In this document: positions 5,267-25,277 of the stretch, piece after piece | Position numbering within the stretch: position 1 is the first letter of the stretch | How the letters are laid out: every line of letters starts with the position of its first letter | Source of the DNA: a virus | Taxonomy: Duplodnaviria > Caudoviricetes | IMG/VR virus record: IMGVR_UViG_3300020048_000077 | Span: 24,997 to 88,996 of that record | Strand: one strand, 5' to 3' | DNA: 64,000 nt | Position numbers and translations under genes: made by a program | Notes under the pieces: model-generated | What the model was told of the DNA's origin: nothing | What the model saw: only the letters and a program-made list of their open reading frames with translations | Databases searched by the model: none

Positions 5267-7867
5267 TTAAATTGTTGTGGTCTTCAACACTATCAACTCA
5301 ATTGCAGGCTCACTCTGAATCACTCTTCCGAGCCGATCCTCCACCATTCCAAAACGACTGATATCCGCACCGTCATGGATCAAGCTGTTCAATCGCTCCC
5401 AATACGCATGCCCTTCAGAAGTATCTTTCCATTTAAACCCATAGGATAGATAATGACATGGTATCAGGGGCTCGACTTCAACAGTGAAAGTGGCATCGAA
5501 GTAAGAACTTGCAGCACTCGCAATATGAGGCGGTAGATTCTTCTGATACCAATCAATGAATTTACATCTCCGTATCTCCAAAGGATCTTCTACAGGAGTT
5601 GATATGATCTCTGCCCATTTACCACCATCATAAATTCCCGTACTCAATACTTTATCTTCAAGCCTGCCACAAGTAGCGATTTTGAATTCCCCGCAGGAAG
5701 TATCAGCATGTCTACTATTATTTCTTGAAGTAGGAATGTATTGGGTTCCTTTAGGGTATCTTCTACGTGCTTCTTCAAGTATCTCTTCCATGCCAATTGT
5801 CCTTACAGGTTCAGGTGCAGGTATCTCATGAGGCAGAGCCCTTCTGCAAACAATAATGCCTCTACCTATATGAACTGGAATATTTTCGAAGGAATCCCAT
5901 TCATCAGATTTTACTGGATTCAAGAGATTTCCAGAAATGGAAGGAACAGAAATATCTCCATAACTTTTACCCAAAGGACGTACACCTACACTTTTGATGA
6001 TTCCAATACATCCGTTATTGGCATGTTTGTAGCCCCATCCACCGGCATCCACCATCACCGCATACTCTCCTACCTTAGGCTCCCACTTTTCTTCTACCGA
6101 TTTCTCAACAGGTGGAACGAATCCCACAGGCATGAGTTCAAAAGCAGGACTCTTATGGACATCTTTTCCATGATATCTTGGGTTTTCAGTACCATCAGAA
6201 ATACCGAATTTATTACATGCTCCCCAATACTCATAGGAATTCTTGGAAGATACGAATTTCAGATAATCTCCTTTATGACAAGGGTAATGCCCTTTAGCAT
6301 GGTCATCTAGACACTTTATATACCTTCCAGTAAGATCTTCTTCTACTTTCATGGTCTTCTTCTTTTCCTGGTCATCGTAGGCTTCCTTAGTTGATGGTTT
6401 GAAATGATCTTCTACACCTTGAGTTGATTGACCGCTTCCTTCACTATATAAGATTCTATAAGAATATTTAGAAGTATCTGTTTTATAAACACCTCCGACT
6501 TTAGTGTAATTACCCCAACCCTCCGGTAACTTGATGCACTCCACATACTCAGGAACAACACTTTCAGTCACCTTCTTAGAATCTTCCAATGACACGAATT
6601 TATTAACTTTGATGCAGGCTTCTAACCAGTGTTTCTCTTCTTCAGTTGCTTTGGTCATGTAAGTTGCAGATGAAAACCTACCCGGATTCCAATAATCTGA
6701 AGAGTTACCTCGGATTGCAATAGCAGAAGAAGATTTGTTTTCAGTACACTTTCCTATAACAGGATCTCTATCGTTCTCACTATAATTATACCTATAAACC
6801 TCTCCCTCAACAAGATCAACAAACTTCAGTCTAACAGGTGCTTTCTCCTCAGCAGACTCTTTCAACACCCACTTTTTGAATTGATCAAAGGTAATCTCTG
6901 TGTATCCTACCTTAATCTCATTCCAATAATCAATGATTTTCTCCCCATCATAATGGTAGTATGAATCTGAATTTCCAGTTAGATTTCGGGGATTACCACT
7001 CCATAATCTGAAACGAGACTGTTTGAGCTTTTCACCTCCTCTGATACACCATTTCTCAGGCAATTCTGTAAGTTCTTTCATAGTAGGTGTTTTATCGACA
7101 TGACCTTCAGGTAAGTATTGTTGAATTCCTGATAGATCTGAAAGTAATTCAAATCTGCAACTTAAACGTGCAAAATTTTTACTAATTCTGAATTTGTATC
7201 CATCACCAAAATCATAAATTTCTTCTGAATAATGCCACTCTGAACCTTGTAATTTTAAGAATTTCTTCCATCCATTAGAAGAAAGAGATGCATACCACTT
7301 TCCAACTTCAAACTGAGGTTCAGTCTTTACGGGTGCTGGAATGTCCTCTTCGAACTCTACAGGTTTAGCAACTATTTTTGCCCAAGTACCCCTATGATAA
7401 ACATTTGGAATCCACTTCAATTCTGAACTTCCCTTAACACATTTACCTTCAAATCCCACATTTTCAATCTGATCAGTAGGATAATAAGGAGTATGTGAAA
7501 CAATCTCATACACCTCCGGAACAGAAGACACACGGACAGGTGTGAACCATGTACCGATGGGATACCTCTCCTTAGCTTCCCTTAGAAGTTTCTCTCCGGG
7601 TGATTCCTCAGGCTTTGAACTTATCTCAGCCCATTTTCCATCCCAATACAGATATCTGTTAAAACTTGTCAGTCCGTATTTTGGATCTTTGTCTATATTC
7701 CAAAGATGGTCCTCAATTTTACTGACAATGTCGTCAGCACTAAATGTAAAATCTGTGTCCACAACTATACACCCTACGTCCTTTTTACTTACATGAGGTG
7801 GATGAAACACAGTACCTACAGGATAGTCTTTCTTTGCCTTTTCAAGCAGTTCTTCTTTTGTTGTCAT
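5267..7867 (-). CDS. 866-aa mosaic repeat protein
   Basis: Three copies of a L(E/R)xA(K/R)xxYPxGT...W(A)xI module plus other short modules such as ELPEKWCIR...ITFDQFKKWV. Confidence 0.8.
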   Translation of the reverse strand: MTTKEELLEKAKKDYPVGTVFHPPHVSKKDVGCIVVDTDFTFSADDIVSKIEDHLWNIDKDPKYGLTSFNRYLYWDGKWAEISSKPEESPGEKLLREAKERYPIGTWFTPVRVSSVPEVYEIVSHTPYYPTDQIENVGFEGKCVKGSSELKWIPNVYHRGTWAKIVAKPVEFEEDIPAPVKTEPQFEVGKWYASLSSNGWKKFLKLQGSEWHYSEEIYDFGDGYKFRISKNFARLSCRFELLSDLSGIQQYLPEGHVDKTPTMKELTELPEKWCIRGGEKLKQSRFRLWSGNPRNLTGNSDSYYHYDGEKIIDYWNEIKVGYTEITFDQFKKWVLKESAEEKAPVRLKFVDLVEGEVYRYNYSENDRDPVIGKCTENKSSSAIAIRGNSSDYWNPGRFSSATYMTKATEEEKHWLEACIKVNKFVSLEDSKKVTESVVPEYVECIKLPEGWGNYTKVGGVYKTDTSKYSYRILYSEGSGQSTQGVEDHFKPSTKEAYDDQEKKKTMKVEEDLTGRYIKCLDDHAKGHYPCHKGDYLKFVSSKNSYEYWGACNKFGISDGTENPRYHGKDVHKSPAFELMPVGFVPPVEKSVEEKWEPKVGEYAVMVDAGGWGYKHANNGCIGIIKSVGVRPLGKSYGDISVPSISGNLLNPVKSDEWDSFENIPVHIGRGIIVCRRALPHEIPAPEPVRTIGMEEILEEARRRYPKGTQYIPTSRNNSRHADTSCGEFKIATCGRLEDKVLSTGIYDGGKWAEIISTPVEDPLEIRRCKFIDWYQKNLPPHIASAASSYFDATFTVEVEPLIPCHYLSYGFKWKDTSEGHAYWERLNSLIHDGADISRFGMVEDRLGRVIQSEPAIELIVLKTTTI

Positions 7868-9497: not shown

Positions 9498-10202
9498 CTA
9501 CTTCATTTTCTGAGTATATCCTACGTTGAACAAGAAGAGTACGTAAATGGCAAGAATGAAGATCACTTCTAATATCCAAAATCTGGTAGATTCCAACAGA
9601 ATTTCAGCTGTCACATTCGGAATGACCTGTCCGAACATGTGGGCATACAGGAATGCACATGCAACTGTTGTGAATGGGAAGGAAAAGAGTGAAAGAATAA
9701 GCGCTGTTCCGAAGGAAATAAACCTGTCCTTTACAACTTCTTTTCTCTTGTAAGGTCCTCTCGATCTGACTACCTTTTCTTTCAGTACCTCTTTAAGAAT
9801 TGCAGGTTCATCCACTTTGTTCTCCACGGTCGGAGTAGCAGTATAAGTGGAAGCCGTTGTTTCTACCGGATCAGAAGACTTTGAAGAAATTCTACCGGCT
9901 GCCTGCGTCTCCTTATACTGATGGATACGTGAAATGATCTCTCTTACCATTTCCGCATTCGGAGCAGTGGGAGATTTCCATACTATACGTCCATCCTTAT
10001 TACCGATGATGCCTCCATTTGTAAGAATAACATATAGCATTCCAGCATCTAAGGAGAGTCCCTTCTCCTTACGCAGATATACAGTGAGATCGTCACGTTT
10101 ATAAAAAATAAGGGTAGGACTTTGAAGTGCAGCATGCATCTCCTTCATTACTTTGGTGTACTTGATTACCATTCTTGGAACGGTGTTTCTCTCTTGTGAC
10201 AT
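9498..10202 (-). CDS. Hypothetical protein with two C-terminal transmembrane segments
   Basis: Start reassigned to ATG 10202 (MSQERNT) because the longer ORF runs through tRNA-Arg; hydrophobic C-terminus. Confidence 0.65.
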   Translation of the reverse strand: MSQERNTVPRMVIKYTKVMKEMHAALQSPTLIFYKRDDLTVYLRKEKGLSLDAGMLYVILTNGGIIGNKDGRIVWKSPTAPNAEMVREIISRIHQYKETQAAGRISSKSSDPVETTASTYTATPTVENKVDEPAILKEVLKEKVVRSRGPYKRKEVVKDRFISFGTALILSLFSFPFTTVACAFLYAHMFGQVIPNVTAEILLESTRFWILEVIFILAIYVLFLFNVGYTQKMK

Positions 10203-10247
10203 GAAAAAAAGGTTTAAGATTAGTGTTTGAACGTGTTTAAAATTTAG

Positions 10248-10322
10248 TGGAGGATGCAGGACTCGAACCTGCGACCATACTGCAAGAAGCAGTTTCTCTC
10301 TAACCATCTGAGCTAATCCTCC
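10248..10322 (-). tRNA. tRNA-Arg(UCU), atypical
   Basis: GGAGGAT/ATCCTCC acceptor; T arm GCAGG-TTCGAGT-CCTGC; anticodon loop CT-TCT-TG; D stem GCTC/GAGA mismatch; no encoded CCA. Confidence 0.75.
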
Positions 10323-10395
10323 TACCACCGGTCTTTCCCGGTTGTCAATGGTACTGCACCCGCACCATCTGGGATCGTCTTACGACAATAAAATT

Positions 10396-10778
10396 AGCAG
10401 AGAGGTGTGCTGTTACGCTAAATGCTCAACGGAATCTACATCAGCCTTGCTCCTGTGGCCTTATTGCCTACCACATCCTCAGTGTTCACGACACCAGGTT
10501 AAGAGGTTAAGTCCCGGATCCTCTCGTACAAGGGAACCTTACTGATCATTGAGTTACTTACCTGAATACTACTCCAGCGGGCCTGAGGATCTACGAGTCT
10601 TTCAACTTTAGAGGCAGGTTACTGTATAATAGATTTTCATGTTCACTCCTCCCGAGTTCTTCCGTTACGCGCCCTACAATTCAGGTTTCACGGTACTTGG
10701 ATTCGCGTTTTACCAAGTATTCCCTCTTTGCAACTCCTTAGATGATGGCTGCTTCCAGGCCAACATTCCAGCTCTGCC
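10396..10778 (-). ncRNA. Large structured ncRNA with 23S rRNA H43/H44 (GTPase centre) and H23/H24-like motifs
   Basis: 5' GCTGGAATGTTGGCCTGGAAGCAGCCATCATCTAAGGAGT; 3' GCGTAACAGCACAC; terminal stem GGCAGAG/CTCTGCT; internal hairpin TACTTGG/CCAAGTA; no credible ORF. Confidence 0.75.
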
Positions 10779-10779
10779 T

Positions 10780-11835
10780 TTACTTGTACCTGATCACATC
10801 AGACCATGAAGGTCCATTACTGACAAATACCTTGTCGAACTTCACATTCAACGATGCAAGAAGACCATCGATGTCAATATGGAACTGGTCCATACATGTC
10901 ACCACAAGATTCTTCTTCCTTCCTACAGAATACGGAGAATCGCACTCCAGAGCGTAATTCAACAACTGTGGATTGAGATGTGCGATTCTGAACTCTCCTT
11001 GATGCTCATTGAAAATGTTTGTCTCGTTCTCATTGTTTCTGAGTTCAAGCTTGCATTCATCAGGAAAATACCCATTACCATGTCTTGTAGCATAGCTACG
11101 TGTGACATAATAAGTTTCATCATTTTCTCCTCTCCACATGCTTGCATTCTTGCCAGTGGTGTTCGACCTTGTGACATTGGGAAAGAACCCATGATCCATA
11201 TCAAGAAGAATGCCTTGAGCGCCCTCGTAGATAGGAGTTCCACCTATACTGAACAGATTTGGCACCACCGTAATGATCTCTTTCACTCTTTCCACAAACC
11301 CATTGAACAGGTCTATGGACACATGTAGTTCAGTTGAAGATGGACATTTCGAATACTTCTCTATGTTCTCCAGCTTTCCAGCAAGAACATCCGGATAGAA
11401 CAGATCTCGCACATGCAATTTGTAATGATGTTCCTGTCTTTGTATAGTGGTGCCAAAACCGGCCCCTACAGAACCATGATTCATGATCTTCTCACGTTCT
11501 CTGTTACGACAGATGTCGAACGGAGTAGTGATAATGGCCATGGGATTCACATAGATCTTAGGAGCTACAATCTTTCCAAGAAGAACATCATACTCTCTTA
11601 CAAGCGCAGGAGGATAGAGAGTACAGTACTCACTCCAGTAAGTTGGAGCACCTTGAAGTGTTCCTGAACCGAAGGAGGAGAATACATGCCTCTGTCCCTT
11701 GTGTACGACAGTATGCCCTGCCTGATGCCCACCGTTGAATCTTACAACGATGGGATCAGGAACAGTAGTGCATAGATATGAGGTGACAAGACCTTTGCCC
11801 TCATCTCCAAACCCAAGTCCAAGAACAGTGCTCAT
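10780..11835 (-). CDS. purA: Adenylosuccinate synthetase (PurA)-like protein
   Basis: GLGFGDEGKG, RFNGGHQAGHTV, EGAQGILLD, VTRSNT; divergent C-terminal YVTRSYATRHGNG. Confidence 0.88.
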   Translation of the reverse strand: MSTVLGLGFGDEGKGLVTSYLCTTVPDPIVVRFNGGHQAGHTVVHKGQRHVFSSFGSGTLQGAPTYWSEYCTLYPPALVREYDVLLGKIVAPKIYVNPMAIITTPFDICRNREREKIMNHGSVGAGFGTTIQRQEHHYKLHVRDLFYPDVLAGKLENIEKYSKCPSSTELHVSIDLFNGFVERVKEIITVVPNLFSIGGTPIYEGAQGILLDMDHGFFPNVTRSNTTGKNASMWRGENDETYYVTRSYATRHGNGYFPDECKLELRNNENETNIFNEHQGEFRIAHLNPQLLNYALECDSPYSVGRKKNLVVTCMDQFHIDIDGLLASLNVKFDKVFVSNGPSWSDVIRYK

Positions 11836-14446: not shown

Positions 14447-14521
14447 TGGTTGTGGCTGGGGGAATCGAACCACCGACCTCCTGCGTATAAGACAGGCGCT
14501 CTACCACTGAGCTGTACCACA
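14447..14521 (-). tRNA. tRNA-Ile(UAU)
   Basis: Cloverleaf with CCTGT-CTTATAC-GCAGG anticodon arm, GCTC/GAGC D stem, TTCGATT T loop, encoded ACCA. Confidence 0.85.
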
Positions 14522-24955: not shown

Positions 24956-25107
24956 GTGATACCAGAAATTTGTTTAACTTTGAAGCCTCAATGAGCATAA
25001 AAAGACATATAGAGCAACCGATTATCAATGATCGCGCCATGAACGCGGACAACGGGACTTCTATGTAAAAGCGAGTAAAGGACATAGAAAAACATTTAAG
25101 AGCATCA

Positions 25108-25145: not shown

Positions 25146-25219
25146 ATAGGAATAGCCAAGTCAGGTATGACGCTACGTTTGGGACGTAGAGATCGTAGGT
25201 TCGAATCCTGCTTCCTATA
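25146..25219 (+). tRNA. tRNA-Pro(UGG)
   Basis: ATAGGAA/TTCCTAT acceptor; CTACG-TTTGGGA-CGTAG anticodon arm; GTAGG-TTCGAAT-CCTGC T arm. Confidence 0.85.
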
Positions 25220-25277
25220 CAACATTGCGGGATAGAGCAGTTCAAGTCTCCTTTATCCAACTGTAATAACATTTATG

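Follow-up and report, generated by a model that had tools for sequence, protein, structure and literature searches.

The DNA analysed here, hereafter the window, comprises 64,000 nucleotides and is the final 64 kb of the 88,996-bp IMG/VR virus record IMGVR_UViG_3300020048_000077 (positions 24,997 to 88,996), which derives from an aquatic metagenome. On its minus strand, between a purA-like gene and a gene for tRNA-Arg, lies an element of 383 nt (10396 to 10778) that resembles two separate parts of bacterial 23S ribosomal RNA (rRNA), the GTPase-associated centre (GAC) and the sarcin-ricin loop (SRL). Few RNA segments are as conserved and as well studied as GAC and SRL, at which every translational GTPase docks and is activated. 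They are targeted by thiopeptide antibiotics, ricin/sarcin-type toxins, VapC20, SRLase1 and Tre23. Comparison with related phage sequences shows that the element is a stand-alone structured non-coding RNA (ncRNA), the two ends of which fold into a self-closed copy of the GAC, and that it belongs to a long-arm subclass that shows the SRL as well. By the same evidence, one molecule holds both rRNA elements that form the docking site of the translational GTPases.

Parts of the element and their resemblance to 23S rRNA

Positions in rRNA are given throughout in E. coli 23S numbering. The parts of the element, in window coordinates, are the following.

10396..10778, minus strand: whole ncRNA, GAC and SRL mimic, 383 nt; begins 2 nt past the stop codon of the purA-like gene and ends 73 nt short of tRNA-Arg
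10768..10778, minus strand: 5' strand of the closing stem (equivalent of the H42 tip), GGCAGAG..GG, the GG being nt 1054-1055; pairs with 10396-10405
10742..10767, minus strand: H43 mimic, nt 1056-1081, with the equivalent of the thiostrepton loop; 33/39 compared with E. coli 23S; the H43 pairs covary
10733..10741, minus strand: CUAAGGAGU, nt 1082-1090, with the C1082-G1086 pair, the invariant A1084, A1085, G1087 and A1088, and the 5' strand of H44
10423..10732, minus strand: inserted arm of 310 nt between 1090 and 1091, with arm stem UGC/GCA, basal junction helices A and B, variable domains, and helix C around the SRL three-way junction
10724-10726 with 10654-10656, minus strand: arm helix A in the structure model of the window
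10650-10652 with 10431-10433, minus strand: arm helix B in the same model
10541-10546 with 10440-10445, minus strand: arm helix C in the same model
10511..10537, minus strand: SRL hairpin, stem GU(U)CCC/GGGAC around UUGUACGAGAGGAUCC; 18/20 compared with E. coli H95
10519-10529, minus strand: SRL loop sequence GUACGAGAGGA, identical to the E. coli SRL
10419..10422, minus strand: UUUA linker from the arm to the H44 hairpin; family consensus UUUR, in which the three U are invariant and R is G (0.85) or A (0.15)
10406..10418, minus strand: H44 hairpin and 3' strand, nt 1091-1103, GCGUAACAGCACA, with the invariant A1095 and the family-specific A1101
10396..10405, minus strand: 3' strand of the closing stem, CC (1104-1105) plus UCUCUGCU; pairs with 10768-10778

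Every one of the 5,426 E. coli genomes has a 23S rRNA gene with which the 5' half of the element aligns, and 33 of 39 nt agree with one such gene (locus L131; E 4e-7). The 3' half, AGCGUAACAGCACAC, agrees with E. coli 23S at 13 of 15 positions, and the mid-arm stretch CCUUGUACGAGAGGAUCCGG matches the SRL region at 18 of 20. An earlier interpretation of the letters alone, here called the sequence-only reading, had already described a phage ncRNA that rebuilds the GAC around a ~310-nt insert. The strings it quoted are found at their coordinates on the minus strand. Its count of 31/40 nt over 1051-1090 is reproduced against the K-12 58-mer, and becomes 32/40 against the E. coli strain compared. 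The 7-bp pairing of the two ends that it had seen is present as well (GGCAGAG with CUCUGCU, one G-U) and is extended by GG/CC, that is by 2 more bp. Its account of the insert has to be revised in two respects. The insert had been placed at the junction of H43 and H44; the actual site lies between 1090 and 1091, within the 5' strand of H44, where the order in the window reads GAGU-UGC...GCA-UUUA-GCGUAACAGCACACC. Moreover, what had been taken for a mere interruption is a conserved, covarying multi-helix domain with an SRL hairpin (10511-10537), which had been missed.

The comparison with Rfam that had been proposed along with that reading matched no family. With Rfam 15, at gathering thresholds and at E up to 10, only tRNA was detected in the window, and no large subunit (LSU) rRNA (RF02541), GOLLD, ROOL, leader or group I/II intron; for eight further family members, no family of Rfam 15 besides tRNA was found on the elements. 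A covariance model built solely from phage copies (R1) scores the window element with 46.9 bits (E 3e-15), with a second partial match because the long arm splits the alignment. R1 also recovers the real E. coli GAC (43.4 bits, E 6e-14) and finds a single copy of the element in the 89-kb phage genome, a genome in which no genuine LSU rRNA was found. Outside GAC and SRL the similarity to 23S is at chance level. Among the 83 exact 11-mer matches between arms and 23S, 59 fall inside the SRL and the other 24 compare with ~25 expected by chance, so that the SRL is the sole arm segment resembling rRNA above background. Other 23S-like pieces of the arm ('H23/H24-like' AGUACCGUGA, AGAACUCGGG..., GUAACGGA...) and a match of GUACUAAUGAA to the 3' end of 23S in some relatives were rejected, being at chance level and not kept across the subclass.

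Covariation and conservation of the GAC fold

Covariation of the core was evaluated in an alignment of 37 short-arm members (A1), the phage sequences from which alone R1 was built. The GAC structure is paired in 92.8% of the cells of A1, compared with 71% in shuffles and 31-53% in slid controls, and 16 of its 24 pairs show compensatory changes. The tertiary pair 1082-1086 is C-G in 19 members, U-A in 12 and A-U in 3, and 6 of the 8 closing-stem pairs covary in the family. The sequence-only reading had pointed to C1082 and G1086, both present in the window, and had argued for selection on the three-dimensional fold of the GAC rather than for a decaying scrap of rRNA. This argument is borne out by the compensatory changes in H43, in the closing stem and at 1082-1086 together with the invariance of the tertiary-core nucleotides; the homologs with covarying H43/H44 halves whose absence would have spoken against it do exist.

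For position-wise conservation, the 5' block was taken from loci ascertained by the 3' pattern only and vice versa, which avoids circularity. U1060, C1072, A1077, A1084, A1085, G1087, A1088, the GCGUA...AGC hairpin and A1095 are invariant in the family. The tertiary core of the GAC is built by U1060, A1077, A1084/85, A1088 and the G1071/C1072 triples, and each of these is invariant or conserved to >=0.99. Position 1061, known to be flexible, varies freely. Position 1067 is A in 0.80 and G in 0.15 of the family and is G in the window (coordinate 10756), and 1068 and 1070 vary. An anti-Shine-Dalgarno sponge, suggested by UAAGGAG at 1083-1089, was considered and rejected: about half of the family has UAAAGAG, tied to the 1082-1086 covariation. 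The sponge for uL10-bL12 that the sequence-only reading had listed among possible functions is likewise unlikely. What corresponds to H42 is no more than a short stem of unconstrained sequence that then stops, and the uL10 site, which lies below nt 1051/1108, is therefore absent from the RNA.

Several characters set the phage copies apart from rRNA. The arm leaves H44 between U1090, paired with A1101, and G1091, paired with C1100, and U1101 is replaced by a purine (A in all members but that of Pseudomonas phage pf16, which has G). Since GAGU at 1087-1090 occurs also in real Gram-positive rRNA, the family-specific characters are the arm, the UUUR linker, A1101 and C1105. These are present in phages of gamma-proteobacteria although rRNA of the host type (E. 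coli) differs at the same positions, which argues for a single origin rather than for repeated capture of host rRNA.

The long arm and the sarcin-ricin loop

Four divergent members that were reached via the core alone (the window element and loci L016, L055 and L007) have in common an arm of ~310 nt with an SRL-like hairpin. Scanning for GUACGAGAGGA linked to the 3' block added 32 metagenome loci and three viral ones, L132, L133 and L134, the last two identical to each other. From these, 28 unique members of the SRL subclass were aligned (A2; GC ~0.34 to 0.61), a set collected using the SRL string, and arm helices were defined by RNAalifold together with a search for stacked covarying columns. 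Five arm elements emerged: the arm stem, helix A (GUGG/CCAC; GAG/CUC in the window), helix B (AGGG/CCCU), helix C enclosing a three-way junction, and the SRL hairpin. In A2, 96.6% of the cells are paired, compared with 72% in shuffles and 33-50% in slid controls; 20 of 23 pairs are compensatory, and the SRL stem covaries strongly across the 28 members. The window element has the basal junction helices A and B, helix C and the hairpin with GUACGAGAGGA, and all its GAC pairs and all four arm helices (A, B, C and SRL) can form. The interior of its arm is more diverged than that of most members of the subclass.

Members were also collected again through the 3' junction motif of the arm, independently of the SRL string. 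The basal junction then appeared in members with arms of 167-280 nt and no SRL as well, including those of Cronobacter phage GAP32 (L306) and Serratia phage BF (L318); the motif CCCUUAGAG..UUUR of this junction is common to members lacking the SRL. The SRL itself is confined to arms of ~300-320 nt. Among the eight long-arm members ascertained without it, GUACGAGAGGA is exact in five, two have UUACGAGAGGA and one has GUACAGAAGGA. The variant stretches read AUUACGAGAGGA in L305 and L315 and AGUACAGAAGGA in L007. As the SRL is limited to one range of arm lengths and exact in only 5/8 independent members, it is by sequence comparison an accessory module, under a constraint that is real but weaker than in rRNA.

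Distribution of the family

An exact-pattern scan with the 5' core retrieved 22 viral contigs, and a scan with the 3' block (GCACACC, compared with GCUCAC in rRNA) retrieved more than 118 viral contigs and 62 cellular assemblies from many phyla. From the scan loci 89 unique elements were extracted. Their common architecture runs from a closing stem ending in GG through AAUGUUGGCUUAGAAGCAGCCAUCAUCUAAGGAGU or near variants to the arm, UUUR, GCGUARYAGCACACC and the complement of the closing stem; the arm is closed by its own stem and measures 33-366 nt. The window element shows each of these features, namely the closing stem with GG/CC, H43 with a UURRAAG loop, the 1082-1086 pair, the GCGUARYAGC hairpin, a self-closed arm between 1090 and 1091, the UUUR linker, and A1101 opposite U1090. 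Short arms split into further classes with motifs of their own, e.g. CACCCCGNAACNGGUAAGG and GUGCGAAAUGUAUCA...GAGUAUGAUGUGCC.

With the whole element as query, blastn against 50,697 phage records gave no match, and a 49-nt core query reached cultured carriers. R1 confirmed Pseudomonas phage pf16 (104 bits), Xanthomonas phage XacN1 (85), Aeromonas phage 4_4572 (84) and Cronobacter phage GAP32 (81), in all of which the element is unannotated. Lytic T4-like and jumbo phages are among the carriers. The phage of the window has terminase, portal and major head proteins that match PHROG, and since its terminase is ~39% identical to terminases of crAss-like phages (Bacteroides and related hosts), it is a distant crAss-like phage. 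The sequence-only reading, which had looked to Crassvirales for homologs, was thus right about the carrier; the family is not confined to that order and is spread over T4-like, jumbo and other phages. A domain search of the proteins of the window's phage found no uL11, bL12, EF-Tu-type translational GTPase or RelA/SpoT.

The family 3' block was also encountered in isolate genomes, on a 103-kb contig of Citrobacter freundii M-21 (L217), on the chromosome of a Maribacter sp. (L219) and in Flintibacter muris DSM 110149 (L206). The Flintibacter copy is a full member (128 bits), and Maribacter has two weak matches. The isolate-genome copies probably belong to prophages or phage-plasmids. Paenibacillus phage Pd_22F (L233:~1486-1620, MZ092003.1) was considered as an armless member and rejected, as its stretch is genuine 23S of the GCUCAC form with no arm and with rRNA flanks. 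This stretch is free of coding sequences and stems from host DNA, from a capture or from an artefact of assembly. Host rRNA also accounts for several short 'phage' records of the collection. Neither full-text searches of the literature nor Rfam 15 yielded a description of the RNA family, and it is apparently a large and as yet undescribed family of phage RNAs.

Genomic neighbourhood

The genes flanking the element in the window are the following.

10247..10322, minus strand: tRNA-Arg(UCU), 73 nt downstream of the element, on the same strand
10780-11835, minus strand: purA-like open reading frame (ORF), Pfam Adenylsucc_synt, 351 aa and short, covering profile positions 2-287 of 416

Across the family, proximity to tRNA genes is the recurrent theme. 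Of the 89 elements, 35 lie at most 100 nt from a tRNA gene, many at 1-7 nt, and wherever the nearest tRNA gene is within 300 nt it is on the same strand (43/43). In pf16 the element exactly occupies the unannotated gap between tRNA-Asn and tRNA-Pro. No protein neighbour recurs across the 89 loci, the largest cluster being 5/89, all close relatives. A link to purA was rejected: none of 66 phage loci with a purA homologue carries the element, and the adjacency in the window is therefore incidental. The purA-like homologues, of 35-56% identity, lie in 66 mostly large phage contigs.

Other features of the window were noted alongside. The 73-nt spacer between element and tRNA-Arg (10323-10395, minus strand) folds into three hairpins (-24.8 kcal/mol, z -2.76, equalled by 1 of 200 shuffles); as modelled, it may either belong to the processed RNA or form a small structure of its own. 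A listed 276-aa ORF (9498-10328, minus strand, GTG start) overlaps tRNA-Arg; its true start is probably the ATG near 10202, and it has no Pfam or PHROG match. The window holds two further phage tRNA genes, tRNA-Ile(UAU) at 14447-14521 (minus strand) and tRNA-Pro(UGG) at 25146-25220 (plus strand), so that the tRNA genes of this phage are scattered, in contrast to the arrays of many carriers. In the phage of locus L133, the tRNA array that contains its GAC and SRL RNA also has, on the same strand (7587-7630, minus), a borderline Rfam match to the bacterial small signal recognition particle (SRP) RNA (40.7 bits, cut-off 40, model positions 24-66). Judged by this resemblance, the stretch may be a second RNA that imitates a part of the translation machinery.

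Discussion

The GAC of bacterial 23S rRNA (tip of H42, H43 and H44, nt 1051-1108) is the 58-nt domain bound by uL11 and thiostrepton. The phage RNA shares with it 32-33 of ~40 nt of the 5' half, the GCGUAAYAGC hairpin, the secondary structure, the 1082-1086 pair and the tertiary-core nucleotides. It differs in being free-standing and phage-encoded in tRNA arrays, in being closed by a short variable stem instead of running into H42, in the variable arm and UUUR between 1090 and 1091, in the purine at 1101 that pairs with U1090, and in the variation at 1067, 1068 and 1070. With the SRL (H95, nt 2653-2667) the long-arm forms have in common the identical GUACGAGAGGA, the C-G-closed GAGA tetraloop, the G-bulge/S-turn sequence and a covarying flanking stem. 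Here the phage version differs in its location in a three-way junction of the arm and not in domain VI, in the variation of position 2654, and in the few members with UUACGAGAGGA or GUACAGAAGGA.

Other systems resemble the phage RNA in part. Leaders of ribosomal-protein operons (L10, L1/L11) are also RNAs that imitate the rRNA site of a ribosomal protein in order to bind it off the ribosome, binding which for the phage RNA is a proposal. They are cis-regulatory 5' leaders with loose mimicry, whereas the phage RNA is an independent gene that shows near-exact mimicry and has no gene for a ribosomal protein in its vicinity; it lies between a purA-like gene and tRNA-Arg, in a phage that has no uL11 or bL12 gene, and matches no leader in Rfam. 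GOLLD and ROOL are likewise large structured phage or prophage RNAs of unknown function and are often found beside tRNA genes (PMC12286853). They are not rRNA mimics, and the phage element matches neither of the two Rfam models. As a working analogy we use pseudo-ToxI of phage phiTE, a precedent for phage decoy RNAs in which a toxin is neutralised by a phage-encoded likeness of a host RNA (PMC3475682). Phage tRNAs that replace or evade tRNA-targeting defences offer a similar case. The analogy is drawn by us; what the phage GAC RNA imitates is part of an rRNA, and it has no known cognate toxin.

Regarding function, we favour the view that the RNA imitates GAC and SRL off the ribosome, is bound by host uL11 and serves as a decoy for proteins directed against these sites, a view that as a whole we consider slightly more prone to fail than to stand. 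In its setting the element would share a transcript with the purA-like gene and tRNA-Arg, from which tRNA-processing enzymes (RNase P or RNase Z) would release it; a cut by RNase P at the 5' end of tRNA-Arg would free the element together with the 73-nt spacer. Because all tertiary-core nucleotides of the GAC are invariant, host uL11 is the protein most likely to be bound by the RNA. The resulting particle of RNA and uL11 would soak up proteins aimed at GAC or SRL, most plausibly ribosome-inactivating toxins or defence effectors, whether they reach the two sites by themselves or through EF-Tu, and the decoy would spare host ribosomes while the phage needs them. Action with conserved host machinery as a stand-alone gene would fit the lack of a recurrent protein neighbour, the absence of a phage uL11, bL12, GTPase or RelA domain, the broad range of carriers and the co-orientation with tRNA genes. 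Enzymes acting on the imitated sites are documented: Tre23 ADP-ribosylates H44 at nt 1095-1098 (PMC8661411), VapC20/26 cleave the SRL (PMC5175351), and SRLase1 cleaves the SRL and requires EF-Tu as a guide (bioRxiv 10.64898/2026.09.18.752725). A version of the decoy that goes further is possible but clearly less probable than the general view. Here GAC RNA and host uL11, joined in long-arm forms by the SRL, would make up a free ribonucleoprotein that reproduces the factor-binding site and is recognised by translational GTPases or their riders, and it would intercept EF-Tu-guided or direct toxins, or trigger or absorb GTPase activity off the ribosome.

Several observations weigh against the decoy. 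The toxins named above are interbacterial or belong to toxin-antitoxin systems, and we know of none that acts against phages. Most members have no SRL, and a family-wide function cannot depend on it; where it is present, the variants UUACGAGAGGA and GUACAGAAGGA occur, changes that are not known from rRNA. The nucleotides of the factor-contacting surface are, by sequence, looser than the core (1067, 1068 and 1070, with G at 1067 in the window), which fits a handle for uL11 equally well as a faithful decoy for factors or toxins. Finally, free minimum free energy folding of the element misses H43 and does not surpass shuffled sequences (z = +0.8), which leaves covariation as the sole basis of the structure; for a fold dominated by tertiary structure this result is uninformative.

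The main rival, which we consider unlikely, would make the RNA a sponge for uL11. It is known that uL11 is needed for the activation of RelA and that it is among the exchangeable ribosomal proteins. By taking up exchangeable host uL11, the RNA would leave ribosomes that translate but cannot activate RelA, and the stringent response would be blunted. What is common to all members is indeed exactly the 58-nt uL11 domain, with an invariant core and looser factor-contacting tips; arm length ranges between 33 and 366 nt, and neither uL11 nor a RelA/SpoT domain is encoded by the phage. Such a sponge leaves unexplained the elaborate covarying SRL arm of the subclass and the conservation of A1067 (largely) and A1095 (wholly). 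The RNA could also be a binder or activator of translational GTPases: the RNA of the window unites both factor-contacting elements of rRNA, and the SRL loop is exact in 5/8 independently ascertained long-arm members. In this case GAC and SRL, probably with uL11, would titrate EF-G, EF-Tu, IF2, RF3, BipA, HflX or similar factors, or trigger GTP hydrolysis off the ribosome, and thereby re-tune host translation. In the 'ribosome-in-pieces' work of Munishkin and Wool (1997), separate GAC and SRL oligonucleotides reportedly bound EF-G. Yet most members do not have the SRL, 1067 is G in the window member, and EF-Tu and EF-G are so abundant that stoichiometric titration needs a very high level of RNA; we regard this binder as improbable.

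No more probable is a GAC whose sole use is that of a stable folding module or a protein handle, while the variable arm does an unrelated job as a scaffold, in the assembly of a larger RNA or ribonucleoprotein, or as a processing signal in tRNA transcripts. The arms are hypervariable, with several classes that have conserved motifs of their own, and the setting resembles that of GOLLD and ROOL beside phage tRNA genes (PMC12286853). Two observations argue against a mere module and for mimicry of the ribosomal site itself: rRNA sequence is kept near-exactly, including loops unneeded for folding (A1095, the GUAA-type loop of H44 and the UUAGAAG loop of H43), and a second functional rRNA element, the SRL, has been added. 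Non-functional debris, be it a captured fragment of host 23S, an attachment site in an rRNA gene or an assembly contamination, would account for the sequence identity to 23S, and some phage records, that of Pd_22F for example, do contain genuine rRNA fragments. This explanation is effectively refuted by the compensatory covariation over more than 100 divergent copies, by derived characters that are absent from rRNA and present in all copies (the arm at 1090/1091, UUUR, the purine at 1101, no flanking rRNA), by the presence in lytic T4-like and jumbo phages, and by the union within one closed molecule of GAC and SRL, which are ~1,600 nt apart in 23S.

Cultured carriers with tractable hosts (Pseudomonas putida phage pf16, Aeromonas phage 4_4572, GAP32 and XacN1) make the question of function directly testable, and the carriers in isolate genomes could serve as experimental systems as well. 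A widespread phage gene that copies GAC, SRL or both as a small independent RNA would represent a new kind of host manipulation, and the RNA would provide structural biology with a natural minimal model of the factor-binding site. Should the RNA indeed be a replica of that site, it would be the first 'ribosome-in-pieces' found in nature and would represent a new class of RNA factors for counter-defence or host takeover. In addition, its occurrence would suggest that phages have to neutralise defences directed at the ribosome or stress responses.

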